DNA of 64,000 nt from an uncultured Alphaproteobacteria bacterium. Its GTDB lineage: Bacteria > Pseudomonadota > Alphaproteobacteria > RF32 > CAG-239. The position numbers and the translations under genes are program-made. The first letter of the stretch is position 1, and the number at the start of each line of letters is the position of its first letter. This document shows positions 16,444-40,182 of the stretch, piece after piece. The notes beneath the pieces were generated by a model, which saw only the letters and a program-made list of their open reading frames with translations, did not search any database and was not told the DNA's origin. The DNA lies in contig CALYAW010000002.1 of assembly GCA_944393685.1 (NCBI GenBank), positions 79,586 through 143,585 on the forward strand. Reading direction: 5' to 3'.

Positions 16444-16458
16444 TAAATTGTTAATTAT

Positions 16459-16489: not shown

Positions 16490-16502
16490 GCAATCTATTT
16501 TT

Positions 16503-17915
16503 TTATAAAATCTGTTTAAACATTTTTACTAAATTTTTAGTGTTTTTCTCATGAGAATAATTAGGAAAAAGATGTTGAAAATTTTTCTCTGAAGAAACAA
16601 TTCCTTCATAACATTTTGAACAAAATTCTGAGGCTTTTTTTTCTAATTCTTTATGATCTATACGCGTTTCTATCATTTTTTGAACATCAAGATTGGGAGA
16701 ATATTTAAATACTCCTGGACATGAATGCCACCATACTTTTCCAAAAATTAAGGCTGGTTTTCCTCCTCTTATGGATTCAAAGGCTGCTGTTCCTGATATG
16801 GTCGCTACAAATTGTGAATGCTCTAGTAATTTGTATGTATTTTCCTCTCTAGGAACAAAAAAGGTGTTTTTCAACAATTTAAAACGCTCAAAAAAACTCT
16901 TGGGACGATAAAAGCTTGTTTGTTTTGGATTTTCTTTTACATAGATTATCCAATCGGTAGGAATTAATGCCCTTAATTGTTCAAGTGCTAATATTTGATC
17001 GTTGTAATATTTTTCTCCCATAATAGAAGTTGTCATTTCTGGTTGTAAATGAAGAGGGAAATATACATATTTCTTTTGATAATCTACTTTTCTAATAAGA
17101 GACTTTAATGTTGTTATATAACACATTGCCAGATAAAATTTTCTAAAATTATGGAAAAAATAAAGAAACATAGGATTCCAGAAAAAGGTATTTTTTATTT
17201 TTTTTAGTCTTATAGCATTTTTTAAAATGTTAAGAGACATAATTATCATTTTTTTCCTTTTTACATTTATATTCGGTGTAAAATATTTTATATTATGCAT
17301 ATAAAATAAATCTTTTTTATATCCTTCTTCTAAACAAATTTTAACATTTCTTACTTTTTTCTTCATACTTTGATAATAGCATTTATCATTTTCATCATAA
17401 TAATATGTAATTATCGGAAGAAAATTATCTGGTTGAAATTCCTGTCCGAGTAAAAGAGTTTTTATTCCTAAATATTTAGCCACGAGATATAACATATTAT
17501 CCACACCTGAATGTGGTACTTCCCAAAAAACTATTTGTTCTATTTTCTCTTTTGTTAAATAACCATATGCAAATCTTAAAGCGATATTTACAGCATGTAT
17601 AGAATCATGAAAACTGAGCACTGGTTCTAGATGTTCATGACGTTCAAAACATTCTATATAAAAATAAAGTTTTTCATACATTTTTGCGTATAAATCTTCT
17701 GGAATAACAAGGTTATCCGTATATTTATGTACCAAATCTTGCGTTGCTCTATTTAACCCATGCCATGGTGAAAAAAATCCTGCTTGCCTAATTAGTTTAG
17801 GATGGTCATCTGCAAATTCTGCAAAAAAATTAATTAACTCTATTTTTCCCTGCCTTTCTAGCTCAAGAAAAGCATCCAGCATAACTGTTGTATAAGCATA
17901 AAAAACCGTTCTCAT
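16503..17915 (-). CDS. Capsule-polysaccharide-biosynthesis-family (KpsS/LpsZ/RkpZ-like) transferase, last gene of the operon
   Basis: 470 aa; the C-terminal segment 'ISGTAAFESIRGGKPALIFGKVWW' resembles the Capsule_synth (KpsS/KpsC) nucleotide-sugar-binding region. The assignment is from memory of that family, not a search. Confidence 0.4.
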   Translation of the reverse strand: MRTVFYAYTTVMLDAFLELERQGKIELINFFAEFADDHPKLIRQAGFFSPWHGLNRATQDLVHKYTDNLVIPEDLYAKMYEKLYFYIECFERHEHLEPVLSFHDSIHAVNIALRFAYGYLTKEKIEQIVFWEVPHSGVDNMLYLVAKYLGIKTLLLGQEFQPDNFLPIITYYYDENDKCYYQSMKKKVRNVKICLEEGYKKDLFYMHNIKYFTPNINVKRKKMIIMSLNILKNAIRLKKIKNTFFWNPMFLYFFHNFRKFYLAMCYITTLKSLIRKVDYQKKYVYFPLHLQPEMTTSIMGEKYYNDQILALEQLRALIPTDWIIYVKENPKQTSFYRPKSFFERFKLLKNTFFVPREENTYKLLEHSQFVATISGTAAFESIRGGKPALIFGKVWWHSCPGVFKYSPNLDVQKMIETRIDHKELEKKASEFCSKCYEGIVSSEKNFQHLFPNYSHEKNTKNLVKMFKQIL

Positions 17916-17927
17916 CTTATTTACTTT

Positions 17928-18947
17928 CTATAAAATATCTTCTTGTTGTAGTGGAGTTCCTAGGGTTAAATCACGCCTCGCCCTTTTTCCTATAATCTTT
18001 TCATAATAACGAGGATGTAAACCTTTAGAAGGACGAATAGATCGTATGTTTTCTGAAGTAAATTCCTCCCCTTGCTTAATTTCTTTTACAACGTAAAGGG
18101 ATCGTCCTAGTTGCCTGTTTTGCTCATTGACCGTATAATCAACCTTCCCAATGGCTTTTTCCGTCTCTCTTACAGCTTTTACCATTGCTGAAAATTCTTC
18201 TTTATTTAAAGAGAAACCACTATCCGCTCCGCCTAAAGAGCGATCTAGCGTAAAATGCTTTTCTATAACAGATGCTCCCATTGAAACAGCCACAATCGGA
18301 GGAACAATACTCATTGAGTGATCAGATAATCCCACTTTTACTCCTTGCGGACCAAATCTATCTCTCATATCTTGAATTGTTAACAAATTCATGTCTTCAA
18401 CTTTTGAAGGATATGCTGAAGTACATTTTAGCAAGGTAATATCTTTGTTTCCCACGGACAAACAGCTGTCTACGGCTTCTTGAATTTCGTCCAATGACGA
18501 AATTCCTGTTGAAATAATCATCGGTTTTCCGTGTTGAGCAGCGTATTTTATCAAATGATAATCGTAGGCTTCAAAACTGGCAATCTTATACAAGGGAACA
18601 TTAATCGTTTCTAAAAAATCAACGGCTGTAGTATCAAATGGTGTTGAAAATAATGGGATACCTAGCTCGTCTGCATAATCTTTTAATTCTCTTTGCCACT
18701 CCCAAGGAGTATATGCTTCAGAATATAAATCGTATAAATATTTTCCATCCCATAGACCTCCATTTAATCTAAATTCTGTATTGTGACAATTTATGGTTAA
18801 GGTATCTGCCGTATATGTTTGAATTTTTACAGCATCGGCCCCCACCTCTTTTGCCGCTTTAATAATTCCTTTGGCTAGTTGTTTATTGCCGCAGTGATTA
18901 GCGGACATCTCGGCAATAATAAATACCTTAGACATCTTGATCTCCAT
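17928..18947 (-). CDS. pseI: NeuB-family nonulosonic acid synthase (pseudaminic acid synthase PseI-like) with a C-terminal SAF domain
   Basis: 'KVFIIAEMSANHCG' N-terminus, a TIM-barrel NeuB core, and a C-terminal SAF/antifreeze-like domain (GRSLYVVKEIKQGEEFT). Confidence 0.85.
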   Translation of the reverse strand: MEIKMSKVFIIAEMSANHCGNKQLAKGIIKAAKEVGADAVKIQTYTADTLTINCHNTEFRLNGGLWDGKYLYDLYSEAYTPWEWQRELKDYADELGIPLFSTPFDTTAVDFLETINVPLYKIASFEAYDYHLIKYAAQHGKPMIISTGISSLDEIQEAVDSCLSVGNKDITLLKCTSAYPSKVEDMNLLTIQDMRDRFGPQGVKVGLSDHSMSIVPPIVAVSMGASVIEKHFTLDRSLGGADSGFSLNKEEFSAMVKAVRETEKAIGKVDYTVNEQNRQLGRSLYVVKEIKQGEEFTSENIRSIRPSKGLHPRYYEKIIGKRARRDLTLGTPLQQEDIL

Positions 18948-19608
18948 AAATTTTCAGAATATATTTTTTCCCTTTCATTTCAAAAAATGCAGGATAGTTT
19001 TCGTTATCTACAATCCTTAATAGATTAAACTGATTTGCAATACTTTGGTGAATATCAAGTTTGCTATCTACAGGACTACGCTTAGCGTAAAATGTTTCCA
19101 CCCCCGTTTGCTCTTTTCCTGTTTGAATAATCGACGGATAGCTAGAGACGAAGGAAATACACATTTCTACGATTTTTTTACCCATTTTTTCTTGCCACTC
19201 ACTTATCAATTCTGAGCCGTCTAATAAGACTGAATCTTGTATATATATTTTCCCGGCATCTACTTTTTCATCTGCTTCAAATAAAGTTAGTGGAATACTG
19301 TCCTTTCCCTCTAAAATTTGCCAACTAGCTGGAGACCATCCTTTTCCTGACGGTAAATTGCTTGCATGCACTACAATATTGTGTCTATTTAGCGCTAATT
19401 TTTCTTTTTTTATGATTTCAAAACAACTCAAAAAAAAGGCTATATCTCCTTTTTGTAGTTGAATTTTATTATCTATTAACCTGACTTCATGTCCTTGGCA
19501 TGTCAAATACTCTTGCAAGGTTAGATTATATTTATTCATCCAACTGGTTTTATCTGTTAATATCGTGATCTTAAGCATTTTATTGCACCTCTTCAAATAA
19601 ATCCGCAT
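18928..19608 (-). CDS. Formyltransferase-domain protein (Met-tRNA formyltransferase / PurN-like N-terminal domain)
   Basis: 'HNIVVHASNLPSGKGWSP' matches the formyl_trans_N catalytic region (HxSLLPxxRG-like). 226 aa. Confidence 0.6.
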   Translation of the reverse strand: MRIYLKRCNKMLKITILTDKTSWMNKYNLTLQEYLTCQGHEVRLIDNKIQLQKGDIAFFLSCFEIIKKEKLALNRHNIVVHASNLPSGKGWSPASWQILEGKDSIPLTLFEADEKVDAGKIYIQDSVLLDGSELISEWQEKMGKKIVEMCISFVSSYPSIIQTGKEQTGVETFYAKRSPVDSKLDIHQSIANQFNLLRIVDNENYPAFFEMKGKKYILKIYGDQDV

Positions 19609-21631
19609 CTTTCAATCTTTTGGCAATCTGGGACAATTCTGAAACAGAAACATTTATGCGATTACTGATATCAATTAAATCATTTGTTCCATCGCTATAA
19701 GCTATTAAATCCATCATGTGTTGAACAATTGATTTTGTGTCTTTTGTGCTTGTAGTTGGGTAAAGACCTCTCTTTCCAAGCTGTGGTTCTCCCAAACATT
19801 TTATTTTATACTTTTTATTTCCTTCTATCGTTGTAATTAATTCTTTATATAACTCAAAAGTTTCTTGCAAGGCATCTGCTGTTACAAAGTTTAAATTGTC
19901 TCCTGAGGTATGATATTCTGGATAAGTTCCATATTTACTTCTTATTACAGAACAGAACGGTAAATCAACTCCTGGAGCACAATATTGTCTCTCGTCAGAG
20001 CCTCTGTCTAAAAAAGTATAAGATTTATAATCTGATGTATTATTACACAATACATTTAGCGCGACTTTGTCTGCAAAAGTATTGCCATATCTGCTTGGAA
20101 TATAAGAAAATTTTCCAGGATCTCCAACACAGGTCAAAATAAAACCCGCCTTTACTTTTTGTTTCAAATGGTGCAAATGTTCTGTAATATATGTGATACT
20201 TCCTATGGTTTCCGGCGCAAAAACAAAACGATAGGTATAATGATTAGGATGAACACTCAGCCACTTTGCTAAAAAGATTGCCAATACAGGACCTGATAAT
20301 TCATTGTTGGCCATGGAAGGATGGCATACATACGTAGAAAACATTATTTCTTCATCAGTTTCTCCCGGAATAACCAAATCCGCGTATGTTAGGGCTCCTT
20401 CTTTTAATTCAGAGTCTATAAAAATTTCATATACATCTTCTTTCAACGACAATCTTTGTGTTTCTGTCATGCAAAAACCGTAGCGCTCTTTATAATAAGA
20501 GGTAATGTAAGGAATCAAGTTCGGTTGTTGGGGTAATGTATATATGATTTCATTCAACTCTTTTAGTGAGACCTTTTTATGAACAGGGATTGAATAGCCG
20601 ACGACATGCAAATTATTTTCTTTAAAATCAATAATTTTATTTCCTGTACTATCTTTAATCCACGCATCTTTGATATTCCATTCTTGAGGAATAACCCAGT
20701 CTTGAACTTGTGTTCCACTGGCTTTCTCATGAATTTGAAGGTGGGGCATAATCTTTTGAAGCTCTTGAAGTGTTTGACGAACGCCATTTCCTGTTAGTGA
20801 ACGGCATATGGGAAACAAACGCTTTATCCACGAATAAATGACCTTACCTTCTCCACCTTGATACAACGCTGCCTTATCGCAAGAATTGTTTTTTATATTA
20901 TCGTCAATAGCATCACACGCTTGTTTCATATCAATTAGTTTTATAAATGAATTTCCTACATAACTTTTCTTTTCTATGTTCCTTTGGCCAAATTCATTAA
21001 ATAATATATAGCCTAATGAAATTAAATCTCTATCTAGATAACGAACATACATTGAATATGTTTTGCTTGAGCGAGTTCCTTCTTCATTAATATAATCTGC
21101 AGTAAATTCTTTTGAAAAACGATATGGAACTAAATTACATGTTTCTACATAGTGGCAAAATGTTGCAGAATCAGAATAGTCAATATTAATAAATAAATTT
21201 TTTGCCCCTATTGCATAGAACCAGCCAAAAATAGAATCTGCGCCAAAAGAATCTTTGTAATCTAAAGAAGTAAGATAGTCTTTGTCTTTCCCATAAACTG
21301 CAAATGAATAAATTGGGTGTTTTGTTCTCTTAAAATCATTTCTCTGTAATGCTTGTTTTGATAAGATACCTGTTTTAGAGGTGGTTTTGTTATAATCGAA
21401 TGTCTTCCCTTTACAAAAACCCCAGTTATATGTCGGAAAAACCAAATTTCCATTATCGCCGACAACTTCTTTTAATGTATCTATAATCATATCTAAAGAA
21501 AGGTCTTCTTTTCGTTCCTGTGCATCACAAAGCAATTGCGTAACATCTGAAGATACAAATAAAGTATCACCCTTTTGAAGCCCCATGTTGATAATATTTT
21601 TTTTAAAGTCATCTATAAGCATATTACACAC
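19580..21631 (-). CDS. Fusion protein: N-terminal AAC(3)-family N-acetyltransferase plus C-terminal M28-peptidase/DUF4910-like domain
   Basis: N-terminal 'MGLQKGDTLFVSSDVTQL' resembles the AAC(3) (Antibiotic_NAT) motif 'GDxLxVHSSL'. The C-terminal half (HPSMANNELSGPVLAIFLAKWL...FVFAPETIGS) is M28/aminopeptidase-like. 683 aa. Confidence 0.5.
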   Translation of the reverse strand: MCNMLIDDFKKNIINMGLQKGDTLFVSSDVTQLLCDAQERKEDLSLDMIIDTLKEVVGDNGNLVFPTYNWGFCKGKTFDYNKTTSKTGILSKQALQRNDFKRTKHPIYSFAVYGKDKDYLTSLDYKDSFGADSIFGWFYAIGAKNLFINIDYSDSATFCHYVETCNLVPYRFSKEFTADYINEEGTRSSKTYSMYVRYLDRDLISLGYILFNEFGQRNIEKKSYVGNSFIKLIDMKQACDAIDDNIKNNSCDKAALYQGGEGKVIYSWIKRLFPICRSLTGNGVRQTLQELQKIMPHLQIHEKASGTQVQDWVIPQEWNIKDAWIKDSTGNKIIDFKENNLHVVGYSIPVHKKVSLKELNEIIYTLPQQPNLIPYITSYYKERYGFCMTETQRLSLKEDVYEIFIDSELKEGALTYADLVIPGETDEEIMFSTYVCHPSMANNELSGPVLAIFLAKWLSVHPNHYTYRFVFAPETIGSITYITEHLHHLKQKVKAGFILTCVGDPGKFSYIPSRYGNTFADKVALNVLCNNTSDYKSYTFLDRGSDERQYCAPGVDLPFCSVIRSKYGTYPEYHTSGDNLNFVTADALQETFELYKELITTIEGNKKYKIKCLGEPQLGKRGLYPTTSTKDTKSIVQHMMDLIAYSDGTNDLIDISNRINVSVSELSQIAKRLKDADLFEEVQ

Positions 21632-22391
21632 CTAAAAGAAAAGATACGTCTTTTGCAAAGTCATCAAGATTTTCTTTGCTGTTTTTATTTGTTTCTATGG
21701 ATATTATCGCATCTGCCGGAAAAACTTCTGCCTTCAAATATTGAATATCCAGTCGGCCTGTTCCTAAATGAGGGTGCGCATCATACGGAGAAGTCATATC
21801 TGAAACGTCCGATAAATGAAACATCTGAGGGTGAAATTGTAATAAATCTTTTATATAAAAATATGCTTCTATACCTTGTGAATTTGCAGAACAAATCGCA
21901 TGCCCTATATCTAAACAAAAACCACATTTCGCAATTTCTTTAATTAAGGAGATTTCTTTGATTGTTGATCCTCGGCAATATTCTCCTCCCATTTTATTTG
22001 GCAAGGCCACAAATGGTTTGTTTTCAATTAAGGCTCGTGATTCTTTTAATTTTGACAGTTGACGAGCCGTCTCTTCGACAGTCCCGTCAATACCTCCATG
22101 AAAAATTATGTATTTTGCCTCCAATTCGTCAGCAAAACGTTTTGTTTGTTCATAGATTTCTATATTGCGTTTTTCATGATCTTTTTTGGCAAGATTAAAA
22201 CCATGCGCAAAATGTGGATTATGAATGATAAACGGAATTTGTAATTTTTTCCATAAATCTAAGGTTTCCTGTGTATCCGGAACAACATATAACTCTATAT
22301 AATCATAAACTCCGCGCTCATATAATTTTTCTGCTTCGTGCAGATAAGAATCGGTATTAATCGACCATAATTTTAGCCCTAGTTTATACAT
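21624..22391 (-). CDS. Xylose-isomerase-like TIM-barrel sugar phosphate isomerase/epimerase
   Basis: 255 aa; AP_endonuc_2-like pattern (FHGG...; HLGTGRLD). Confidence 0.6.
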   Translation of the reverse strand: MYKLGLKLWSINTDSYLHEAEKLYERGVYDYIELYVVPDTQETLDLWKKLQIPFIIHNPHFAHGFNLAKKDHEKRNIEIYEQTKRFADELEAKYIIFHGGIDGTVEETARQLSKLKESRALIENKPFVALPNKMGGEYCRGSTIKEISLIKEIAKCGFCLDIGHAICSANSQGIEAYFYIKDLLQFHPQMFHLSDVSDMTSPYDAHPHLGTGRLDIQYLKAEVFPADAIISIETNKNSKENLDDFAKDVSFLLGV

Positions 22392-25161: not shown

Positions 25162-25168
25162 TTTTCCT

Positions 25169-30144: not shown

Positions 30145-30157
30145 ATTCTCTCGAGAT

Positions 30158-30394
30158 TTAAAAAGTGATGTCGTATTTGGCCAAAATTTCCTGACCTTTT
30201 TCAAAACTGGATAAATCAACAATATCATCTGGCTCTAACATAATATCAAAAGCCTCTTCCAATTGAGCAACCAACCCCATATGTCCAACAGAATCCCAGG
30301 CCGGAATATCTTGAAATTTTAGTTTTTTTGCAGCTTCTTCATCAATATCAAATGCCTGACAAAACGCTTGCGTATACTTTTCAATATTACTCAT
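30158..30394 (-). CDS. Acyl carrier protein (ACP #1)
   Basis: 78 aa; a phosphopantetheine attachment serine in 'DIPAWDSVGHMGLVAQLEEAF'. Confidence 0.8.
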   Translation of the reverse strand: MSNIEKYTQAFCQAFDIDEEAAKKLKFQDIPAWDSVGHMGLVAQLEEAFDIMLEPDDIVDLSSFEKGQEILAKYDITF

Positions 30395-32917: not shown

Positions 32918-34070
32918 TTTGCCCTCTCTTAAAATATTCTATCCAATATTTTATTTTCTCTTCCCTATTTAATTTACCTTCCGGGGTTTTATATTTGCTT
33001 ATTCCGTTTGTTTTTACATCTTTAAAATCGACAACTCCAAATCCCCACGATAATCCTACGCCAAAAGATGCTAAACAAAGATATTGATGTTTCTTCTCGG
33101 AAAGTTCTCTGCATATATCTGTAACTATAGAAGCTGTTCCACAGTTACCATACAAAGAAAAAGTATCCGTTGACCATTTTTCTTTTGGTAATCCGGCATA
33201 CATAGCTACTGTTTTCACAATTTGCTTATTAGCTTGATGAAAAGCAAAATAATCAATATCTGATATTTCTTTACCGGTATAATTTAGAATTTTCTCAATT
33301 CCTTTGGGACCTACATCGGTCGTAAATTTAAAGACATCAATTCCTTTCATTATTTCATCCCATAAATGCCACACATTTCCGGATTGATCTTTTTCTTCAA
33401 TGTCGATTATGTCTTTTTGAATGGGCAATGCCCAACCTCCAGCAGGGGCAATTATCTTGTCCCAATCTTTTCCTCTTGTTCCCGTGTAAAAATAAGCTGT
33501 TTTTTCTTCTGCTGTCCACTCTAGAAGAGTGGCTGTTCCCGCATCACCAAACAACATATTGGAATTGCGGTTGCGTCTATCTGAGTGTGTGCTCGAAATT
33601 TCTCCCGCAAGCAACAAGCATTTTTTCGAAGCGCCGCTTGATATTAACGAATGAGCTAACCATAATCCATGCACATAAGCAGAGCACGCCAATCCTGTAA
33701 TATCAAAACAGGTACAATCTTCACTCAAATTTAAACGCCCTTGTAAAATACATGCTGATGCTGGATATTTATAATCTAGTGATGTTGAAACCATAATTAA
33801 TGTATCGATTGAATCCTTGTCTATATTTAAAAATTCTATCAAATCACGTGCTGCTGCTTCGCATAGATCACAGTTCGTCGTTCGTTCATCAGCAACATAA
33901 CGGGTTCCTAGCCCTAAAATTTTTTTATTACGTTCCAATAGTTTCGGATCGTTGTTAAAAAATTCTATTTCATCATCTATATTAATGAAATGTTCAGGAA
34001 CAACAGCCGTAATCCCACTAATCTTGACGTGACTAAATTTTGATTTAGGCATTGCTATATTGCTCCACAA
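32910..34070 (-). CDS. KAS III (FabH)-like ketoacyl-ACP synthase #1
   Basis: 386 aa; 'GLACSAYVHGL' active-site Cys region and a C-terminal 'HQANKQIVKT' (ACP_syn_III_C His/Asn region). Confidence 0.75.
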   Translation of the reverse strand: MWSNIAMPKSKFSHVKISGITAVVPEHFINIDDEIEFFNNDPKLLERNKKILGLGTRYVADERTTNCDLCEAAARDLIEFLNIDKDSIDTLIMVSTSLDYKYPASACILQGRLNLSEDCTCFDITGLACSAYVHGLWLAHSLISSGASKKCLLLAGEISSTHSDRRNRNSNMLFGDAGTATLLEWTAEEKTAYFYTGTRGKDWDKIIAPAGGWALPIQKDIIDIEEKDQSGNVWHLWDEIMKGIDVFKFTTDVGPKGIEKILNYTGKEISDIDYFAFHQANKQIVKTVAMYAGLPKEKWSTDTFSLYGNCGTASIVTDICRELSEKKHQYLCLASFGVGLSWGFGVVDFKDVKTNGISKYKTPEGKLNREEKIKYWIEYFKRGQNA

Positions 34071-34789
34071 TCAATTATATAATTTTGGGCTGTTATCCAT
34101 TCTGCTTGTTTGGATAGTAAAAATACAACAGTATTAGCAACATATTGGGGTTTCCCTATACCCATAGGATATTTACCTTCTGCAAAAGATCTGGAAATTT
34201 CATCTGCCATGTTGGTAGAAATCAGAGATGGCGAAACACAATTTACGCGAATATATGATGGCGCTAGCTCTCGAGCAATTGCTTGCATCGTTGCTATTAA
34301 AGCTCCTTTTGATCCGGCATATTCTGTCATTCCCGGATCACAATGGACTCCTCCACTTGAAGCAATACAAACTACAGAGCTACCTTTGCCATTATTATTA
34401 CGTTTATCTGTAAATCCTTTTGTCATAAAAACAGGAGAAAAATAATTAATATTAAATAATTTCTGCATCTCTGTAAAATCGATGGATTTTAGCGGCAGTA
34501 TCCTCCCTACTCCCGCACAATTTGCTAGTCCTTGAAATTTTCCATATTTATCCTTTAGTTCTTTTACATAACTTGGTAGCTGCTCTATATTTTCTGCTAA
34601 ATCTTTTATCTCTATATAGATATTCTCAGGATGCTTGGATTTTGTCTTCATTCCCAATAAACGTTCTTCATTTCTGGCTATAGCTATTACGCTTGCTCCT
34701 AATTCATTCAATCGTAGCGCAACCGCTTCTCCTATGCCTGATGAAGCCCCCGTTACAATAAATCTTTGTTCTTTGGTAAATTGTATCAT
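34055..34789 (-). CDS. Short-chain dehydrogenase/reductase #2
   Basis: 'FIVTGASSGIGEA', 'NCAG', 'YAGSKGAL' YxxxK. Confidence 0.8.
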   Translation of the reverse strand: MIQFTKEQRFIVTGASSGIGEAVALRLNELGASVIAIARNEERLLGMKTKSKHPENIYIEIKDLAENIEQLPSYVKELKDKYGKFQGLANCAGVGRILPLKSIDFTEMQKLFNINYFSPVFMTKGFTDKRNNNGKGSSVVCIASSGGVHCDPGMTEYAGSKGALIATMQAIARELAPSYIRVNCVSPSLISTNMADEISRSFAEGKYPMGIGKPQYVANTVVFLLSKQAEWITAQNYIIDCGAI

Positions 34790-35007
34790 TATAGTCCCGC
34801 CTTTTTTGCTATGTCTCCAATCGTTTTCATCTCTTTATAATCTTTCATTGTCGTCTTGATATTAAAGTTCTTTTCCAAAAAGGCCATCGTTGCCATAACA
34901 GATAGAGAATCCCATTCATCTAAATCTTCTAAAACCGTTTCATAGTTCAAGTCTTCTTCTGTTTGTAATACATCTTGCATGTTTGTCAAAAATTCTTCTT
35001 TATTCAT
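34789..35007 (-). CDS. Acyl carrier protein (ACP #2)
   Basis: 72 aa; 'LDEWDSLSVMATMAFLE' with a DSL phosphopantetheine site. Confidence 0.8.
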   Translation of the reverse strand: MNKEEFLTNMQDVLQTEEDLNYETVLEDLDEWDSLSVMATMAFLEKNFNIKTTMKDYKEMKTIGDIAKKAGL

Positions 35008-36134
35008 TCTTCTGCTCCTTTAAAATAGTTAGTCCAATATTCTAGTTGTTGTTTGCGAGTTGGTGTATTTTTAGGGGTAATATACTTTGAAACTCCACCA
35101 TTATACATTCCCGATAAATCAAGTGCGGCACCTCCCCATGACAGCCCTATACCAAATGTACATAAAATCACTTTCTTCATCTCTTTATCTTGATCGCACA
35201 AAACCGTTGCAACTGAATTTGTCGAATTATTGGCATATTTGGAAAATACATCTATGGGGGCCTTTTCTGCAGGAATTTCTGCTTTGGAAATGATATTTTC
35301 AACAATTTGCTTATTGGCTTGATGAATTGCAAACAAATCAATATCATCCTTATCCCAAGCCGCCGCTTTCATTGTCTCTTTTAATAATGTGGGGGCAACA
35401 TCCATTGTAAAATTAAAGACATCTTCTCCCTTTAATATCCCTTGGCTTAACAAGGTCTTGTTGCCAGACACATCTTCAACATATAAATCTATGGTATCTT
35501 TACTTAAAGGCAGACGCGTTCCTCCTAACGGATGAACTATTTTGTTCCACCCCAAACCATCCGTTCCCGTAACAAAATACGCTTTTCTTTCTTCTGACGT
35601 GTATTTCAAAATGGTTGCTGAAGCAGTATCTCCAAATACTGGCGCTACCTTTCGATTCGTCTGATCATTTATTTTAGCGCACAAATCCCCGGCCAATAAT
35701 AAACATGTTTTGAAAGCTCCTGTCGAAACAAAGGCATGAGCTGTCATGAGAGCGTGGATATATCCCGAACAACCTAAATTTATGTCTAATGTTGTACAAC
35801 TCTTTTTTAATCTTAATCTTCCGTGAGCAACACACGCATCACATGGCTCTGGATAATCCGGCTTCTGATTAACAAAAATCAATAAGTCAATATCTCCTCG
35901 GTCAATACTCATTTCTGTCAATAGTTTTTCTGCTGCATCAACAGCCATATCAGTCACTGTTGTCAATTCGTCCGCAATATAACGTCGACCATATCCCATC
36001 ATTTTTTTGGCTCGAGCTAATTTTTTGGGATTGTTGTCAAAATATTGCATTTCATCATCTATATCGATGAAATGTTCCGGAACAACCGTTTTTATACCTG
36101 ATATTTGAACATGTGTGTAAGAAGATACTGTCAT
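35004..36134 (-). CDS. KAS III (FabH)-like ketoacyl-ACP synthase #2
   Basis: 376 aa; 'LGCSGYIHAL' Cys region and 'HQANKQIVEN'; paralogous to 32910..34070. Confidence 0.75.
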   Translation of the reverse strand: MTVSSYTHVQISGIKTVVPEHFIDIDDEMQYFDNNPKKLARAKKMMGYGRRYIADELTTVTDMAVDAAEKLLTEMSIDRGDIDLLIFVNQKPDYPEPCDACVAHGRLRLKKSCTTLDINLGCSGYIHALMTAHAFVSTGAFKTCLLLAGDLCAKINDQTNRKVAPVFGDTASATILKYTSEERKAYFVTGTDGLGWNKIVHPLGGTRLPLSKDTIDLYVEDVSGNKTLLSQGILKGEDVFNFTMDVAPTLLKETMKAAAWDKDDIDLFAIHQANKQIVENIISKAEIPAEKAPIDVFSKYANNSTNSVATVLCDQDKEMKKVILCTFGIGLSWGGAALDLSGMYNGGVSKYITPKNTPTRKQQLEYWTNYFKGAEE

Positions 36135-36871
36135 TTCTTATTCTCTTCATATAGTTTACGTAATACATACATTTCTTTGATGATTATTTTTCCAAAATGC
36201 TGATAAATTCTAAGCATCGGCAAATTATTTGAGGATATGACGGTCTTTAATTTAACGCTTGATCTATCTCCGGAAAGAGATAAACCATAACCAATGTGTT
36301 TGAACTCTGCAAAGACACCTCCCAGTATTCCTTCATCGATTTGCTTTTCTTCATTACGTATATTTATACCAAACGCAACCTCATCTTCCCTTACTTTCAT
36401 TACCCACATCCACGAATTCGGATTATTATATAAATCCAAACACCAATTTTGATAACGTTTACAAGCAATCTCTTTTCCAAAATAAGGATCCAAACTTATT
36501 CTGTCGGTATCAAACATATCTGGAGTAATTTTAGATATTATTCGTTCCCATTCCTTTTTATCCTTGGAAACAACTACTCTTTCGGCTTCTTGCATAAATT
36601 CAGAGATATCTTCTGATGTTTCTTTGGGCTCAAAATAATCTTTAATATGGAATTGTGTCTCCATAAATCTAAAGCCTTCATCTTCCAGTTTATGTAATGC
36701 TTGCAAGTTACCAACGGGCATCTTAATTACAACATAGGCTCCTGAAAAATTTTGTTCATGAATTACTTTTAAAGTCTGTTTAAAATCTTTCAAGTCTCTC
36801 CGTTCGAGGGTAATTTCATATGCATCACGATTTAAATTTCGATTTTCCCAAAATGCCTTTATGATTTTCAT
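36131..36871 (-). CDS. WecD-like (TDP-fucosamine N-acyltransferase-like) GNAT protein
   Basis: 246 aa; N-terminal region 'NLQALHKLEDEGFRFMETQF' resembles the WecD N-domain 'LDALQQLGFSLVEGEV'. From memory of E. coli WecD; weak. Confidence 0.35.
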   Translation of the reverse strand: MKIIKAFWENRNLNRDAYEITLERRDLKDFKQTLKVIHEQNFSGAYVVIKMPVGNLQALHKLEDEGFRFMETQFHIKDYFEPKETSEDISEFMQEAERVVVSKDKKEWERIISKITPDMFDTDRISLDPYFGKEIACKRYQNWCLDLYNNPNSWMWVMKVREDEVAFGINIRNEEKQIDEGILGGVFAEFKHIGYGLSLSGDRSSVKLKTVISSNNLPMLRIYQHFGKIIIKEMYVLRKLYEENKK

Positions 36872-38289
36872 AATCCCAGTTCCTTGAAATGGTAATTTCC
36901 TTCTATTGTTTTTATGTCAAAATCATTCGGCATATCAATATGTTCAATAACCTCACACAAACGACTTTTGACGATACTGCCTTCATAGCTATTTAAATAG
37001 TGCTGATAATTTTGAGTAACGACTCGTTGACATTCTTTCTTATCTGATAGTAATTTTTCTACTCCCAATAAGAGTTCTTCTGCTTTCTCATACATATATG
37101 GAAAATTTTGCATCTGGTATTCATGAAAAGACCAATGAGAATTCTCGCGATTAATTTTGACAACATACGGAACTCTTAAACGCATTAAATCAATCATTGT
37201 CAAAGCTGATGATACTGGAAAACTGTCAATAAATACATCTGCACACTTAAAAATAAGCTCATATTCTTGTGAAAAGGGAATAAAAATTAAACGGTTCTTA
37301 CAATTCGAATCACAGAATATTTTATCTATAATCACTTGTTGCTTATTATTTATATTGGATATTATAATGTGTTTTACAGATGGATTTCTTTCCAATAATT
37401 TCTTGATTGTATAAAAATATTCTGAACCCGTACTATCAAAAAACTTATAAGCACTTGCTCCGGACATTGTGCATAAATCACCTTCTTCAATACCTAATTC
37501 TTTTCTTTTGGCGCTTATTTCTTCATTTGTAAATGATGGGAATTCTTCAACTCTTTTGCTTAACATCGGGATAAAAACCGTTTTATTAAAATGGCGCAAG
37601 TGTTGCGTTATATAGGCTGATGTCGGCAATGCTTCCAAAGATATATCTGCAAAACTTATGCCTAAATTAGGATAATGAGATGCATGCGGACAATAGATAA
37701 TCTTTATGTCCGTATACTTTTTTACTAAAGACAAAGTCATCGTTCCAAATATATCATCAGGATTAATAAAAACAAATAAGGCTATTGGATTAAATTTTGT
37801 TATTTGACTATATAAATTTCTCAATTTTTTTTGCCAACATAGAAATGAAAAATTTTCTCCTGATATAATCGCATTTTCTGACAAACTCAACATCTGCTCC
37901 TGAGCAATATTATAGCTGCGACTTATTTTTGTAAAAAATATCTGCTGTTTATAAGTATCGTTCAGAGCTGTTGTTTGTCTTTCAATGCATTTTGTATGGC
38001 CCCCACTGCTATATATCTCTGTTACTAAATAACCAACACGATTTTTATGAGGCTTAGTTTTGCTATAATCTATTATAGGGCATAAACTACTAATTTCAGC
38101 ATCCAATAAATGAGTGTCAAAATCTTTATTTTCCCTTATTTTTTCTATTATCGCTGATAATTTTGTTCTTTTGCTCCAAACAGGAATGTCAAAAATGCGA
38201 ATAAAAATCTTACCTTTTTTCTCTTGTAAACGAATAATCGATAATCCTAAAATCTTAAAACTGTTATTTACCCATCCAAAAAGTTTCAT
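36868..38289 (-). CDS. Putative glycosyltransferase (GT-B-like; possibly WecF/PseG-like)
   Basis: 473 aa; 'EIYSSGGHTKCIERQ' resembles the G-x-GH-x-x-R nucleotide-sugar motif of MurG/PseG/WecF-type enzymes, but only weakly. Confidence 0.3.
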   Translation of the reverse strand: MKLFGWVNNSFKILGLSIIRLQEKKGKIFIRIFDIPVWSKRTKLSAIIEKIRENKDFDTHLLDAEISSLCPIIDYSKTKPHKNRVGYLVTEIYSSGGHTKCIERQTTALNDTYKQQIFFTKISRSYNIAQEQMLSLSENAIISGENFSFLCWQKKLRNLYSQITKFNPIALFVFINPDDIFGTMTLSLVKKYTDIKIIYCPHASHYPNLGISFADISLEALPTSAYITQHLRHFNKTVFIPMLSKRVEEFPSFTNEEISAKRKELGIEEGDLCTMSGASAYKFFDSTGSEYFYTIKKLLERNPSVKHIIISNINNKQQVIIDKIFCDSNCKNRLIFIPFSQEYELIFKCADVFIDSFPVSSALTMIDLMRLRVPYVVKINRENSHWSFHEYQMQNFPYMYEKAEELLLGVEKLLSDKKECQRVVTQNYQHYLNSYEGSIVKSRLCEVIEHIDMPNDFDIKTIEGNYHFKELGL

Positions 38290-39416
38290 CGTTTACTCCA
38301 AAATTCTATCGTTTTATCGATGACTTTTGTTTGAGCATCTTCACTCAAATTATAATACATCGGTAACCGAACCAACGTATCGCTAACTTTATTTGTTACT
38401 GCCATATCCCCATTTGCACGTCCATATTTTTGTCCAGCAACTGATGAATGAAGCGGAATATAGTGAAAAACACACAAAATACCATTAGATTTCATAAAAT
38501 CTATATATTGCGTTCTAGATGCCAAATCAGGACAACGTAGATAATATATGTGAGCATTAGGCTCGCATTCTGAGGGAAAACTTGGTCGTATAATCCCCTT
38601 TTCTTCCAATTGTGCAAAAGATGAATGATAATTATTCCACAAATGCAACCTCTTTTTTTTAATATCATCCGCGATTTCTAGAACAGAATATAGGTAAGCG
38701 CCGATTATATCACTGGGAATATATGAAGAGCCTTTGTCTACCCATGTATACTTATCCACTTGTCCTCTTATAAATTTATTGCGATTTGTTCCTTTTTCAC
38801 GGATGATTTCTGCTCGTTCTGCCAGACACTCATCATTTGTAACAAATAAACCACCTTCTCCTGAAGTAATGTTTTTTGTCTCATGAAAACTGAAACACCC
38901 CATATCTCCTATTGTTCCCAGAGGTTTTCCTTTGTAATAGGCATCAAACGCATGAGCCGCATCTTCAATTACTAATAATTTATGACGTTGAGCTATATCC
39001 ATTATAGTATCCATCTCACAGCCCACTCCCGCATAATGCATCGGTACGATTGCTCTGGTTTTCGGAGTAATTGCCGCTTCAATTTTATTTTCGTCAATAT
39101 TTAGGGTGTCCGCTCTGATATCTACAAAAACGGGAGTAGCACCCTGCATTACAAAGGCATTGGCTGTGGTACAAAAGGTAAAAGATGGCATAATAACTTC
39201 ATCGCCTGATTTTATGTCCGCCAAAATTGCTGCCATTTCTAGAGCAGCCGTGCCCGAATGAACTAATGCCGCCGTTCTACAGTGCAGTTTTTCTTTGAAG
39301 CTCTCACTACATAGTTTAGAGTATTTCCCATTTCCCGATGTGTGGCCTGTTTTTAGAACATCTGATATATATTCTATGGTTTTATTTGTGTATACTGGGA
39401 CATTAAAATTTATCAT
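38286..39416 (-). CDS. WecE-like TDP-4-keto-6-deoxyhexose 4-aminotransferase (DegT family), first gene of the operon
   Basis: Long colinear similarity to E. coli WecE as I recall it: 'AALEMAAILADIKSGDEVIMPSFTFCTTANAFV', 'IVPMHYAGVGCEMDTIMDIAQRHKLLVIEDAAHA', 'GCFSFHETKNITSGEGG', 'AEIIREKGTNRNKFIRGQVDKYTWVDKGSSY'. Confidence 0.8.
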   Translation of the reverse strand: MINFNVPVYTNKTIEYISDVLKTGHTSGNGKYSKLCSESFKEKLHCRTAALVHSGTAALEMAAILADIKSGDEVIMPSFTFCTTANAFVMQGATPVFVDIRADTLNIDENKIEAAITPKTRAIVPMHYAGVGCEMDTIMDIAQRHKLLVIEDAAHAFDAYYKGKPLGTIGDMGCFSFHETKNITSGEGGLFVTNDECLAERAEIIREKGTNRNKFIRGQVDKYTWVDKGSSYIPSDIIGAYLYSVLEIADDIKKKRLHLWNNYHSSFAQLEEKGIIRPSFPSECEPNAHIYYLRCPDLASRTQYIDFMKSNGILCVFHYIPLHSSVAGQKYGRANGDMAVTNKVSDTLVRLPMYYNLSEDAQTKVIDKTIEFWSKR

Positions 39417-40162: not shown

Positions 40163-40182
40163 GTAATTTGCAGCAGAGAAAA

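Follow-up and report, generated by a model that had tools for sequence, protein, structure and literature searches.

A 24-gene operon-like island predicted to make and transfer two N-acylated amino sugars

We analysed a 64,000-nucleotide stretch of DNA (the window) from an uncultured gut alphaproteobacterium, in which 24 genes on one strand, g1 to g24, form an operon-like island. The most likely reading is that the island produces two N-acylated amino sugars and transfers them, with two dedicated carrier proteins serving for assembly of the acyl groups; we assign this explanation as a whole a probability of about 0.6. What we observed directly are the protein family assignments, the intactness of catalytic motifs, synteny and fused genes.

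Organization and boundaries of the island

From the ORF listing and our own translation, exactly 24 consecutive minus-strand ORFs were recovered between 39416 and 16503 (Table 1), in agreement with the initial annotation. With the longest ORFs, the 23 junctions range from −71 to +12 nt and three of them (0, +7 and +12) are without overlap. When alternative starts were taken from gene callers on identical metagenome contigs, 16 of the 23 junctions overlapped by 1–14 nt and the widest gap, between ACP2 and the MBL-fold gene, was 13 nt. The earlier limit of 12 nt on intergenic gaps therefore holds for the longest ORFs but is dependent on the choice of start codon, being correct to one base. This gene geometry suggests a single transcript. 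Consensus scans inside the operon returned 61 promoters against 63.7 expected from shuffled sequence and 12 terminators against 8.4, counts that favour neither the presence nor the absence of internal signals.

Upstream of the operon lies a cspA-like gene, whose hairpin/T-run terminator occupies 40129-40167. In the leader that follows it, about 715 nt long, the box cTTGACAa occurs three times and some 130 nt are weakly duplicated; neither a credible ORF nor a match to Rfam was found there, and similar DNA was not found in related loci. Immediately past the final stop codon is the hairpin AAAACGCTCTTTGAAGAGCGTTTT, shared with the convergent rubrerythrin gene, which the consensus terminator scan did not list. 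We can dismiss an assembly artefact, since the LuxE-like protein occurs on 20 contigs and six of these, from six metagenome samples, carry the same operon with collinear neighbours at 98–100% identity.

Table 1. Features of the island and its flanks, with the matches on which each assignment is based
Feature	Predicted product or nature	Coordinates	Strand	Likely (gene-caller) start	Basis
Leader	Promoter/leader region between the cspA terminator and the operon's first start codon	39417..40130	-		
g1	WecE-type dTDP-4-amino-4,6-dideoxyhexose aminotransferase	38286..39416	-		PF01041, 3.9e-92
g2	GT-B glycosyltransferase, 473 aa, family not modelled in Pfam	36868..38289	-		AF2 model and Foldseek
g3	Divergent GNAT-like N-acyltransferase, 246 aa, paralogue of g14	36131..36871	-		Profile-profile match
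g4	FabH-type (KS III) ketosynthase 1	35004..36134	-		PF08545, PF08541
g5	Acyl carrier protein ACP1	34789..35007	-		PF00550, 26.6 bits (cut-off 20.8)
g6	SDR ketoreductase 1	34055..34789	-		PF13561, 5.5e-42; PF00106, 3.9e-39
g7	FabH-type ketosynthase 2	32910..34070	-	34052	PF08541, PF08545
g8	FabG-like SDR ketoreductase 2	32177..32917	-		PF13561, 3e-53; TIGR01830, 199 bits
g9	Transketolase N-terminal (thiamine diphosphate-binding) subunit (TktN)	31362..32180	-		PF00456, 1.8e-38; GDGECDEG motif
g10	Transketolase C-terminal (pyrimidine-binding) subunit (TktC)	30395..31369	-		PF02779, PF02780
g11	Carrier protein ACP2	30158..30394	-		Weak PP-binding matches, 17.7 bits, under cut-off
g12	MBL-fold hydrolase, glyoxalase-II type, possible thioesterase	29443..30144	-	30144	PF00753, 5.7e-10
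g13	Adenylate-forming ligase, presumed ACP2 loader	28053..29456	-		PF00501, 5.9e-36; TSGSTGSPK P-loop
g14	Cassette GNAT N-acyltransferase, distantly WecD-like	27391..28059	-		PF13673, PF00583
g15	LuxE-family acyl-protein synthetase	26328..27404	-		PF04443, 5.1e-59
g16	LuxC-family acyl reductase (aldehyde-forming)	25169..26341	-		PF05893, 3.8e-27
g17	PseB, inverting UDP-GlcNAc 4,6-dehydratase	24157..25161	-		TIGR03589, 502.5 bits (cut-off 407.75)
g18	PseC aminotransferase	23064..24164	-		TIGR03588, 487.9 bits (cut-off 423.5)
g19	PseF, CMP-pseudaminic acid synthetase	22384..23064	-		TIGR03584, 283.2 bits (cut-off 205.7)
g20	Endonuclease-IV-like TIM-barrel metallo-phosphoesterase	21624..22391	-		PF01261, 1.8e-14
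g21	AAC(3)-type N-acetyltransferase + M28-like DUF4910/DUF2172 + winged HTH fusion	19580..21631	-	21622	PF02522, PF16254, PF09940, PF16221
g22	Formyltransferase-like protein	18928..19608	-	19578	PF00551, 35.5 bits (cut-off 26.1)
g23	PseI, pseudaminic acid synthase	17928..18947	-	18935	TIGR03586, 478.8 bits (cut-off 340.25)
g24	KpsC/WbbB-like ulosonic-acid glycosyltransferase	16503..17915	-		PF05159, 24 bits (cut-off 20)
Terminator	Hairpin with T/A runs, likely bidirectional	about 16455-16490	.		Read directly from the sequence

A cassette shared across phyla

Genes 4-16 recur in 53 GTDB species, with LuxE identities of 49–91%, among Alphaproteobacteria, Desulfovibrionaceae, Gastranaerophilales, Lachnospiraceae, Spirochaetia, Synergistaceae, Negativicutes and Eggerthellaceae. 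They form a conserved, horizontally mobile cassette. Its members (KS, ketosynthase; MBL, the MBL-fold gene) are present to different extents in the 53 loci: LuxC in 49, AMP-ligase in 45, LuxE in 42, GNAT in 41, ACP2 in 40, TktC in 38, KS in 32, ACP1 in 22 and the optional MBL in 15. The two FabH-type ketosynthases, two SDRs, two ACPs, split transketolase, LuxE, LuxC and AMP-ligase named in the initial annotation were each identified by family matches, but its grouping into two FabH/SDR/ACP triplets and a Lux set gave way in the 53-locus comparison to three other blocks: KS-ACP1-SDR(KR)-KS, SDR(KR)-TktN-TktC and ACP2-(MBL)-AMP-ligase-GNAT-LuxE-LuxC. The second ketoreductase, g8, travels together with the transketolase, still adjoining TktN/TktC in loci that are free of ketosynthases (L026, L038 and L054). 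Against locus L007, the SDR2-Tkt block is 44–47% identical and the adjoining blocks 62–97%; the blocks recombine independently of each other.

The ketosynthases, ACPs, AMP-ligase, transketolase, LuxE and LuxC all have intact catalytic motifs, which their homologues conserve. Both ketosynthases match NF009519 (249.8 bits for g4, under the cut-off, and 269 bits for g7) and retain their motifs (CS-G Cys and HQAN His in g4; ACSA and HQAN in g7). The serine motifs of the carrier proteins are kept throughout, DSL in 22/22 homologues of ACP1 and WDSV in 40/40 of ACP2, which always adjoins the AMP-ligase. The relatives of that ligase include amino-acid adenylation domains and DltA. LuxE has its SSGTSG motif and C-terminal RGCSD cysteine in 44/44 homologues, and scores 75 bits on the true-LuxE equivalog, which requires 550; the NACSS cysteine motif of LuxC is present in 48 of 51. 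The best NCBIfam matches of g12, to hydroxyacylglutathione hydrolase and SolJ, are both under cut-off. The cassette GNAT, g14, profile-matches GNAT structures in the PDB and reaches the WecD model NF008212 at E 3e-6, far under its cut-off.

Genes for amino sugars and glycans surround the cassette, encoding FdtA, GT2 enzymes, PglD-like acyltransferases, ArnC/ArnT-like proteins and ABC exporters, and on Rhizobium megaplasmids its core adjoins DegT and a glycosyltransferase. In nine loci LuxC is followed by an LDH-family gene; the seven members in which a motif search located the site have Arg at the LDH Gln102 position, a malate-dehydrogenase signature. In L061, a methyltransferase lies directly downstream of LuxC.

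The two proposed sugar branches

WecE stands at the head of the operon, as had been claimed, with 567.5 bits on NF008687 (cut-off 375) and 542.6 bits on TIGR02379 (cut-off 434.85). The second gene, previously left uninterpreted, had no Pfam, NCBIfam or PDB sequence match, and structure search identifies its product as a GT-B glycosyltransferase: the AF2 model (pLDDT 91.2) found GT41 OGT-type and GT4 enzymes as its best Foldseek matches (1e-14 to 1e-12). A DegT-family aminotransferase lies directly upstream of the g2 homologue in 6/6 contexts, 5/5 of those tested being WecE-type, and some g2 homologues carry a GNAT or a GT56 domain by fusion; g2 is a candidate for transfer of an N-acylated 4-amino-4,6-dideoxyhexose. 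Pfam and NCBIfam searches gave no direct family match for g3. Its earlier description as WecD-like needs correcting: only a profile-profile alignment with the g14 family, the cassette GNAT, marks it as a GNAT (hhalign probability 93.4%, E 2.6e-7, 196 columns). In L020, L027 and L053 a g3 homologue directly precedes the KS-ACP1 block, in L025 it precedes a KS, and in L020 and L064 it follows the homologue of g2.

At the other end of the island, PseB, PseC, PseF and the NeuB-family synthase (PseI) all exceed their NCBIfam cut-offs, bearing out the earlier assignments. Among the window ORFs scanned, all but a few short ones, the PseG and PseH models had no match and neither RmlA nor RmlB was found, again as first reported. 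Aligned to PDB 5zhz, g20 retains the H / HGG / EN / CxDxxH / HxxD / DxH / ET motifs, the metal ligands of Endo IV. A TIM barrel is the sole unassigned gene of a compact PseB-PseC-PseF-TIM-[GNAT+NeuB] operon in L150 and also adjoins Pse genes in L113 and L123. On the basis of this one compact locus and two co-occurrences, we consider g20 the strongest candidate for a substitute of the missing PseG.

The AAC(3)+DUF4910/M28 fusion and the formyltransferase-like protein were likewise recovered by domain matches. The fusion, g21, matches PDB 3k9t at 2.5e-118, and of 43 metagenome loci of 8 kb or more, 17 have a relative of it beside a NeuB-family synthase; it is a candidate enzyme for the PseH step, for N-acyl remodelling or for both. 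The NCBIfam match of g22, NF005414 at 8.5e-16, is under cut-off; in L151 a GNAT+Formyl_trans_N fusion sits at the PseH position. The final gene belongs to the Capsule_synth family, consistent with the capsule-family transferase first described. Its profile matches KpsC (6e-6), and the best Foldseek matches of its AF2 model (pLDDT 86) are the KpsC and WbbB beta-Kdo transferases (6e-8 to 4e-7), with low global TM-scores of 0.31-0.36. Homologues adjoin PseB/C/F/I genes in L150 and L151, and g24 is a candidate pseudaminyltransferase. The window contains no flippase, polymerase, ligase, Maf/FlmG or flagellin genes.

Proposed pathway and known systems

In the pathway that we infer, the substrates, the order of the steps, the pairing of acyl groups with sugars and the final acceptor are all predictions. 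WecE would aminate dTDP-4-keto-6-deoxyglucose, the supply of which would require RmlA and RmlB, necessarily encoded outside the window; g3 would N-acylate the resulting amine and g2 transfer the sugar. In the other branch, PseB and PseC would produce a 4-amino sugar nucleotide, to be N-acylated by g14, by the AAC(3) domain of g21 or by both. The TIM barrel would remove the nucleotide in place of PseG, PseI would condense the sugar with PEP, PseF would form the CMP-sugar and g24 would transfer it. Four N-acyltransferase candidates (g3, g14, the AAC(3) domain of g21, and g22) compete for two or three amino groups, and the acyltransferase assignments are accordingly under-determined.

Two acyl groups are envisaged. 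The two KS III enzymes, ACP1 and a ketoreductase, with no dehydratase or enoyl reductase, would build a short 3,5-dihydroxyacyl chain. On ACP2, the AMP-ligase would load a hydroxy-dicarboxylate, probably malate, whose free carboxylate LuxE/LuxC would reduce to an aldehyde. Transketolase requires an aldehyde acceptor, and LuxE/LuxC are the sole aldehyde-generating enzymes present. The split transketolase would attach a two-carbon ketol to this aldehyde, and g8 would reduce the ketone to yield a 2,4,5,6-tetrahydroxyhexanoyl (3-deoxyhexonoyl) group, a sugar-like polyhydroxyacyl N-substituent that g14 would hand to an amino sugar. Alternatively, the transketolase could act in the manner of DXS, to which g10 shows a likeness (TIGR00204, 156 bits, under cut-off), or could generate glycolyl units. 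As to which sugar receives the cassette product, Pse genes do not adjoin the cassette in the majority of the 53 loci, and the product here may go to the WecE sugar rather than to Pse.

The initial annotation knew of no described locus that fuses all these modules. The full 24-gene fusion was seen solely in this species, and no characterised product for the 13-gene cassette was found in the literature searched, but the cassette itself is widespread and an ACP/SDR/AMP-ligase/LuxE/LuxC set has been described between Pse genes in Aeromonas group II flagellin islands (PMC7874193), with the same set in enterobacterial flagellin islands (PMC4875605). These precedents weaken the novelty of the arrangement, although their ACP/LuxCE modules are simpler than the cassette here; the side-chain part of the island is an uncharacterised cassette common to gut bacteria of many phyla. 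In F. psychrophilum, two KS, an ACP and a KR are assigned to the 3,5-dihydroxyhexanoyl group (PMC6519341). Aeromonas AH-3 carries a 376.14-Da Pse derivative and a 102-Da moiety of unknown identity; the masses that we computed for Pse5Ac7(dihydroxybutyryl), 376.148, and C4H6O3, 102.032, equal these values and are isobaric with others, such as O-methylglyceroyl. The AH-3 module is without a transketolase.

Operon geometry and gene content

The 24 consecutive minus-strand ORFs described in the initial annotation (g1 to g24) were borne out by ORF listing and translation. If the longest ORFs are taken, three of the 23 junctions lack an overlap (0, +7 and +12 nt). With gene-caller starts from identical metagenome contigs, 16 of the 23 overlap and no spacer is wider than 13 nt; the limit of 12 nt first claimed is off by one base at most, depending on the start codons chosen. 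The same genes occur in the same order, at 98–100% identity, on contigs from six metagenome samples, which shows the arrangement to be real. The 5′ neighbour of the block is a cspA-like gene that ends in a hairpin/T-run terminator, after which comes a non-coding leader of about 715 nt; the 3′ border is a hairpin with flanking A/T runs, shared with a convergent rubrerythrin gene. The sole match in an Rfam scan of the leader was a sub-threshold hit to the cspA thermoregulator RF01766 (21.8 bits vs 78) over the neighbouring cspA gene, and blastn found no similarity between the leader and related loci. Both flanks consist of housekeeping genes (Fur, rubrerythrin, MetRS, TrkH, Mla and ABC genes on the left; ProRS, DNA polymerase III delta′ subunit, PBP5, lytic transglycosylases, HflX, TrkA and Dus on the right); exact look-up of two proteins on the right flank returned no record.

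Positions of features in the window and in compared loci, with the blocks of the acyl cassette
Feature	Sequence	Position (strand)	Remarks
Operon g1–g24	window	39416–16503 (−)	24 ORFs in a row
CspA-like cold-shock gene	window	40183–40386 (−)	67 aa; own terminator; directly upstream of operon
Terminator of cspA-like gene	window	40129–40167	
Leader	window	39417–40130 (−)	three cTTGACAa boxes; ~130-nt unit weakly duplicated (blastn E 0.004)
TTG ORF	window	39427–39660	77 aa; non-protein-like; ends 10 nt before g1
Palindrome	window	30073–30112	perfect, 17-bp stem (ATATGAGTTTGCATCAATGAATTTTGATGCAAACTTATAT); in 5′ part of MBL gene g12, just downstream of ACP2; reported on both strands by terminator scan
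3′ border hairpin	window	~16455–16490	
Long ORF	window	56673–60857 (−)	1394 aa; weak sub-threshold Apolipoprotein-repeat match; may be a giant helical-repeat protein
Cassette block 1			KS-ACP1-SDR-KS; from presence/absence and identity discontinuities
Cassette block 2			SDR-TktN-TktC; from presence/absence and identity discontinuities
Cassette block 3			ACP2-(MBL)-AMP-ligase-GNAT-LuxE-LuxC; from presence/absence and identity discontinuities
Bilophila cassette	L020	107–16000	Bilophila wadsworthia ATCC 49260
LDH/MDH-family gene	L034	12247–13191	Spirochaetia MAG
Dehydratase variant	L064	8913–20840	
DUF4910/M28 locus	L091	6969–18033	
DUF4910/M28 locus	L113	1709–8364	
Distant core	L149	5239–15021	Rhizobium anhuiense plasmid pRA_T24_2
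Compact Pse operon	L150	9416–14434	
Compact Pse operon	L151	9410–15477	

Most of the initial gene calls were confirmed by curated models. The WecE, PseB, PseC, PseF and NeuB-family assignments all scored above cut-off: g1 on the WecE model NF008687 (567.5 bits, cut-off 375), g17 on TIGR03589 for PseB, the inverting UDP-GlcNAc 4,6-dehydratase (502.5 bits, cut-off 407.75), g18 on TIGR03588 for the aminotransferase PseC (487.9 bits, cut-off 423.5), g19 on TIGR03584 for the cytidylyltransferase PseF (283.2 bits, cut-off 205.7) and g23 on TIGR03586 for the synthase PseI (478.8 bits, cut-off 340.25). At the level of Pfam families the operon encodes two FabH-type ketosynthases (KS), two SDRs, two carrier proteins (ACP1 and ACP2), a split transketolase (TktN and TktC), an MBL-fold hydrolase, an adenylate-forming ligase (AMP-ligase), a GNAT and one protein each of the LuxE and LuxC families. 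The catalytic motifs of the KS enzymes, carrier proteins, AMP-ligase, transketolase, LuxE and LuxC are intact and are conserved in their homologues. All the families of the Aeromonas and enterobacterial acyl module are present at this level, and their members g8, g11, g13, g15 and g16 adjoin g17–g23.

The 24 operon proteins contain no match to PseG (TIGR03590), to PseH (TIGR03585, at E ≤ 1e-3) or to WecF-type GT56, and neither RmlA nor RmlB was present among the window ORFs scanned (all but a few short ORFs); the earlier statement that no rmlA/rmlB or pseG/pseH was identified thus held. On the WecD model NF008212 the GNAT g14 reached only 27 bits (cut-off 219), and g3 did not match. Despite family matches to PF05893 and PF04443, the operon proteins are not LuxCDE orthologues (LuxC 48 vs 750 bits, LuxE 75 vs 550), and neither LuxD nor LuxAB is found in the operon. 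A full type II FAS cycle is likewise absent from the operon, which has KS III, KR and ACP only, with no FabZ/FabA and no FabI/K/L/V.

Distribution and blocks of the acyl cassette

Antigenicity, flagellar assembly and host recognition are all influenced by surface glycans that carry unusual N-acyl groups, and for most such groups we know of no biosynthetic genes. A search with the LuxE-like protein g15 gave no fewer than 7996 relatives at E ≤ 1e-20, and the closest loci belong to uncultured gut Alphaproteobacteria and Rhodospirillales MAGs, with LuxE identities of 81–91%. A scan of one genome per GTDB species yielded 53 loci in which, by tblastn and clustering, g4–g16 recur as a unit: LuxC is present in 49, AMP-ligase in 45, LuxE in 42, GNAT in 41, ACP2 in 40, TktC in 38, TktN in 34, KS in 32, ACP1 in 22 and MBL in 15. 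The hosts are nearly all gut or rumen organisms and comprise Alphaproteobacteria, Bilophila, Mailhella, Gastranaerophilales, Lachnospiraceae and other Clostridia, Spirochaetia, Synergistaceae, Fretibacterium, Anaerovibrio, Veillonellaceae, Succinatimonas, Burkholderiales and Eggerthellaceae. Judged from these sequence comparisons, the acyl factory g4–g16 is a mobile cassette, which passes as a set of 10–13 genes between gut and rumen bacteria from seven or more phyla. Three blocks (see table) replace the two FabH/SDR/ACP triplets into which these genes had first been grouped; relative to locus L007, the SDR2–Tkt block is 44–47% identical and the remaining blocks are 62–97% identical.

Pse genes adjoin the cassette in few loci only (L043, L045, L008, L046 and L057). 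Its other neighbours include FdtA with a GNAT, PglD-like acyltransferases, GT2 enzymes, ABC exporters and ArnC/ArnT-like genes, and in L061 it is flanked by housekeeping genes. Depending on the host, the cassette is plugged into one or another amino-sugar pathway, for Pse, for a 4-amino or 3-amino dideoxyhexose or for an Arn-like lipid-carrier system. A role in phage defence or secondary metabolism was considered and rejected on account of the sugar genes at the cassette flanks.

The composition of the cassette and of its surroundings varies. In L064, WecE, homologues of g2 and g3, a 394-aa protein and two FabA-like dehydratases are followed by SDR, TktN, TktC, ACP, AMP-ligase, LuxE, LuxC and GT2; here dehydratases substitute for the ketosynthase block, implying that another acyl product is made. 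In Bilophila (L020 and L025) the cassette comes after homologues of g2 and g3, and on its 3′ side lie an ArnC/GtrB-like GT2, a small membrane protein and a large ArnT-like membrane protein, identities that were read from the sequence by eye. This arrangement suggests delivery by a lipid carrier to a periplasmic acceptor rather than protein glycosylation. A more distant core, at ~40% identity, is found on Rhizobium megaplasmids, where DegT and glycosyltransferase genes lie beside it. In L149 the order TktN-TktC-LbH acyltransferase-small ACP-AMP-ligase is followed by glycosyltransferase, DegT, LuxE, LuxC and SDR, with FabZ, a GMC oxidoreductase and a methyltransferase close by, and megaplasmids of this type in clover rhizobia are a cultured, annotated relative of the core system. 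No description of a glycan cassette containing transketolase and LuxCE was found in the literature searched.

Amino-dideoxyhexose and pseudaminic acid modules

Because neither g2 nor g3 matched any sequence or model in Pfam, NCBIfam or PDB, the identity of g2 was taken from a structure model and that of g3 from profile–profile comparison. The AlphaFold model of g2 (473 aa, pLDDT 91) is a GT-B glycosyltransferase nearest to GT41 OGT-type and GT4 enzymes; the top Foldseek matches were GT41 (TM 0.55–0.57), and GT4 was equally good (TM 0.58–0.63). The model has no helical-repeat (TPR-like) domain, and its N-terminal residues 1–40 make up a short beta-rich segment. In all six contexts examined, the gene just upstream of the g2 homologue encodes a DegT-family aminotransferase, and a GNAT often follows; the five aminotransferases that were scanned scored 562–600 bits on the WecE model, the frameshifted one from C. 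lanienae being left out. Fusions also occur, in which a g2 homologue is joined to a GNAT or to a GT56 WecF-like domain. Fold and context together point to g2 as a member of a new GT-B family tied to WecE. Comparison by hhalign identifies g3 (246 aa) as a remote paralogue of g14 (probability 93%, E 2.6e-7), and in four other loci a ketosynthase directly follows the g3 homologue; in three of these ACP1 comes next. On the strength of the WecE-linked context, the GT-B fold and the GNAT kinship, we read g1–g3 as a putative aminotransferase, transferase and N-acyltransferase for dTDP-4-amino-4,6-dideoxyhexose. In C. lanienae the g2 homologue is fused to a GNAT that scores just above the cut-off of the PseH model (95.1 vs 93.1 bits). 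A divergent PseG was nevertheless rejected as the main reading of g2, since each of the five partner aminotransferases tested is of WecE type and RmlA/C/D are encoded in the C. lanienae locus.

The last gene, g24, had been called a KpsS/LpsZ-like capsule-family transferase, and this agrees with its match to Capsule_synth (PF05159, 24 bits, cut-off 20), with a profile match to KpsC at 6e-6 and with Foldseek, in which the best fold matches to the g24 model were the CMP-Kdo-dependent transferases KpsC and WbbB. Homologues of g24 adjoin PseB/C/F/I genes in two other contexts (L150 and L151), which makes g24 a candidate pseudaminyltransferase.

For the PseG step, the TIM barrel g20 keeps sequence motifs in common with M. 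tuberculosis endonuclease IV, which we take to be metal ligands. The compact L150 operon has the order PseB-PseC-PseF-TIM-[GNAT+NeuB], in which the TIM barrel belongs to AP_endonuc_2 and the fusion is 483 aa; it contains no PseG-like gene, and the TIM barrel would be the only gene left for this step. We consider g20 a candidate PseG surrogate on these correlative grounds. The M28 domain of the AAC(3)-M28 fusion g21 was ranked below the TIM barrel in this role because L150 has the latter and lacks M28.

The M28-like part of g21 equals PDB 3k9t. In a survey of DUF4910/M28 genes in metagenome loci (L068–L147), counts were made from the 43 loci of at least 8 kb: g21 relatives lie beside a NeuB-family synthase in 17, and CMP-transferase, PseC and PseB genes occur in 12, 11 and 10, respectively. 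By this correlation, DUF4910/M28-like proteins fused to or beside an AAC(3)-like protein appear to be recurrent accessories of nonulosonic-acid loci (for example L113 and L091). L113 reads PseB-SDR-PseC-AAC3-M28 and TIM-PseI, with no PseG or PseH match. In L123 and L135 the DUF4910/M28 loci stand beside FabH/SDR/AMP-ligase genes. Candidates for the PseH step are the AAC(3) domain of g21, again by correlation, together with g14 and g3; in L151 a 367-aa GNAT+Formyl_trans_N fusion occupies the PseH position. A variant Pse pathway that dispenses with PseG or PseH would bear on the prediction of nonulosonic acids from genomes.

Proposed acyl chemistry and relation to known systems

We tentatively propose, with a probability of about 0.3, that the ACP2, AMP-ligase, GNAT, LuxE, LuxC, split-transketolase and SDR genes of the cassette form an undescribed route to sugar-like N-acyl groups, in which an ACP-bound hydroxy-diacid would be reduced to an aldehyde, extended by transketolase through ketol transfer and reduced again to give a polyol acyl chain, with g20 as a non-orthologous replacement of PseG. 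Transketolase requires an aldehyde, and LuxE/LuxC are the only aldehyde source in blocks 2 and 3. In these blocks malyl-ACP2 would be converted to the aldehyde, followed by C2 ketol addition and reduction, to yield 2,4,5,6-tetrahydroxyhexanoyl. The composition of block 1 (g4–g7) is exactly that to which 3,5-dihydroxyhexanoyl is ascribed in F. psychrophilum, and the block might act correspondingly. An LDH/MDH-family gene lies directly after LuxC in nine loci, among them L011, L026, L027, L029, L030, L034 and L035. The seven members in which a motif search located the site have Arg at the LDH Gln102 position, the malate-dehydrogenase signature, and this Arg predicts a dicarboxylate (oxaloacetate/malate) substrate. 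A methyltransferase follows LuxC in one locus. O-methylation of 2,4,5,6-tetrahydroxyhexanoyl would give the acyl group that Pse on T. denticola flagellin is reported to carry. The calculated mass of Pse with the methylated group is 450.185 Da, and Kurniyati in 2017 is said to have found the T. denticola flagellin glycan at 450.2 Da. Without transketolase the route would end at dihydroxybutyryl, with calculated masses of 376.148 Da on Pse and 102.032 Da alone; these match the Aeromonas AH-3 values of 376.14 and 102 Da, for which isobaric alternatives exist. A literature search for tetrahydroxyhexanoyl-type groups found nothing.

If this route is correct, it offers a testable biosynthesis of the T. 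denticola 2-methoxy-4,5,6-trihydroxyhexanoyl group, its transketolase-less form explains the 376-Da and 102-Da moieties of Aeromonas flagellin, transketolase gains a role in secondary glycan tailoring, and the genes become markers by which glycan chemistry can be predicted in metagenomes. Two surveys have already described a simple ACP/SDR/ligase/LuxE/LuxC set beside Pse genes and guessed at a 'liposugar' (PMC7874193; PMC4875605). What is new here is the specific mechanistic hypothesis, the putative variant Pse pathway and the proposed GT-B family tied to WecE.

The KS block and the ACP2/LuxCE/transketolase block could instead work one after the other on one and the same larger acyl group, as would be the case if the MBL thioesterase frees a polyketide acid that LuxE/LuxC and transketolase then extend; one sugar only would carry this group, the other amine being simply acetylated or formylated. 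The blocks are contiguous and translationally coupled, they occur together in about 32 of the 53 loci, an MBL-fold hydrolase akin to thioester hydrolases sits between ACP2 and AMP-ligase, and the AAC(3) domain and formyltransferase-like protein could supply simple acyl groups. We find a single chain rather unlikely, however, because loci that lack KS (L026, L038 and L054) keep SDR-Tkt-ACP2-AMP-GNAT-LuxE-LuxC, loci that lack Tkt (L047 and L052) keep KS/ACP1, the two carrier proteins and two GNAT paralogues each stand beside their own block, and MBL is present in 15 loci only. That the FAS-like and Lux-like genes channel fatty acids, so that a lipid is put on the glycan, seems scarcely credible: the operon lacks an elongating KS (FabB/FabF), dehydratase and enoyl reductase, both of its KS being FabH-type, LuxE and LuxC fall far under the Lux equivalog cut-offs, LuxD is missing, a lipid would be heavier than the 376 and 102 Da known from Aeromonas, and lipid synthesis has no role for transketolase. 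LuxC and LuxE are nonetheless fatty acid reductase components in luminous bacteria, and the Aeromonas and enterobacterial surveys read ACP/FabG/ligase/LuxE/LuxC in this way (PMC7874193; PMC4875605).

At the level of the whole operon, g24 might be a polymerising KpsS/KpsC/LpsZ-type enzyme that makes a K-antigen-like polymer rich in acylated Pse, as in Sinorhizobium, rather than decorating protein or LPS. Its membership of Capsule_synth, its resemblance to KpsC and WbbB and a host that is an alphaproteobacterium by nearest relatives are consistent with this, and in Sinorhizobium a Pse-containing K-antigen presumably goes with a neighbouring LpsZ-type gene. A capsule is still very unlikely, given that the 64-kb window has no KpsM/T/E/D-type export or other capsule genes and housekeeping flanks, that a g24 homologue lies in the LPS-core locus L151 and that protein-modifying GT41 enzymes are the top fold matches of g2, with GT4 enzymes equally good. 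From the geometry we infer that g1–g24 form one transcript. Several internal promoters driving separate units, in which case the genes would be a supra-operon and not one polycistron, would fit the many sigma-70-like hexamer pairs within coding regions and the differing evolutionary histories of the modules. We judge such a division unlikely: spacers do not exceed 13 nt, 16–20 of the 23 junctions overlap depending on the choice of start codon, consensus scans found promoter-like and terminator-like sites inside the block no more often than in shuffled sequence, and hairpin/T-run terminators, read by eye from the sequence, lie only outside it.

Among known systems, V. cholerae O1 rfbKLMNO, to our knowledge without transketolase, ketosynthases or Pse genes, presumably makes a short hydroxyacyl N-substituent by ACP, LuxE/LuxC-like and ligase-type enzymes. 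Its gene content resembles that of the window operon in linking a short hydroxyacyl on a 4-amino-4,6-dideoxyhexose to ACP/Lux-like/ligase functions. A literature search on rfbKLMNO and tetronate biosynthesis gave nothing useful; the acyl group itself, 3-deoxy-L-glycero-tetronyl on perosamine, is confirmed (PMC8009174). In F. psychrophilum, the O-antigen genes wfpC-wfpG, with two 3-ketoacyl-ACP synthases, an ACP and a ketoreductase, are the proposed source of a 3,5-dihydroxyhexanoyl group that an amino sugar carries in N-linkage (PMC6519341). Their composition is that of g4–g7, but the acyltransferase is PglD-like (left-handed beta-helix) there and a GNAT in the window operon, and the F. psychrophilum acceptor is UDP-Qui2NAc4N.

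Aeromonas group II polar-flagellin islands carry ACP, 3-oxoacyl-ACP reductase, AMP-dependent synthetase, LuxE and LuxC between Pse genes (PMC7874193), and enterobacterial flagellin islands have the identical gene set in 70–80 strains (PMC4875605); neither survey assigns a chemical structure to the product. Compared by family, the window operon likewise has ACP/SDR/ligase/LuxE/LuxC beside Pse genes. It differs from these islands, as far as the available parts of the two reports describe them, in forming one tight operon, in having a transketolase, which they do not mention, in FabH-type ketosynthases, a second ACP and a WecE branch, which they do not list, and in lacking the canonical PseG, PseH and Maf of the islands. 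A report on T. denticola flagellin describes a pseudaminic-type nonulosonic acid with a six-carbon 2-methoxy-4,5,6-trihydroxyhexanoyl and, in its available part, names no genes for this group (PMC13439194). As given there, the oxygenation pattern of the group equals that of the predicted ACP2/LuxCE/transketolase/SDR product after O-methylation. The Spirochaetia MAG L034 carries the full cassette; the T. denticola group is methoxylated, whereas the window operon has no methyltransferase.

Compared with the canonical Pse pathway of Campylobacter and Helicobacter, four of the six enzymes score above equivalog cut-offs in the window operon, and in place of PseH and PseG it has the AAC(3)-M28 fusion, the endonuclease-IV-like TIM barrel and the formyltransferase-like protein g22. 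As in E. coli ECA wecE/wecD/wecF, an aminotransferase, which passes the WecE model, is combined with a GNAT and a GT-B enzyme, presumably for a dTDP-4-amino-4,6-dideoxyhexose. Unlike in ECA, g3 gives no match to the WecD model, g2 is not a GT56 enzyme, even if a GT56 domain is joined to one of its homologues, and the predicted acyl donor is acyl-ACP in place of acetyl-CoA. Finally, g24 is like the KpsC/KpsS/WbbB beta-Kdo transferases (GT107/GT99) by PF05159, profile and fold, at a sequence identity of only 10–14%, and its genomic context points to CMP-Pse, not CMP-Kdo, as donor.
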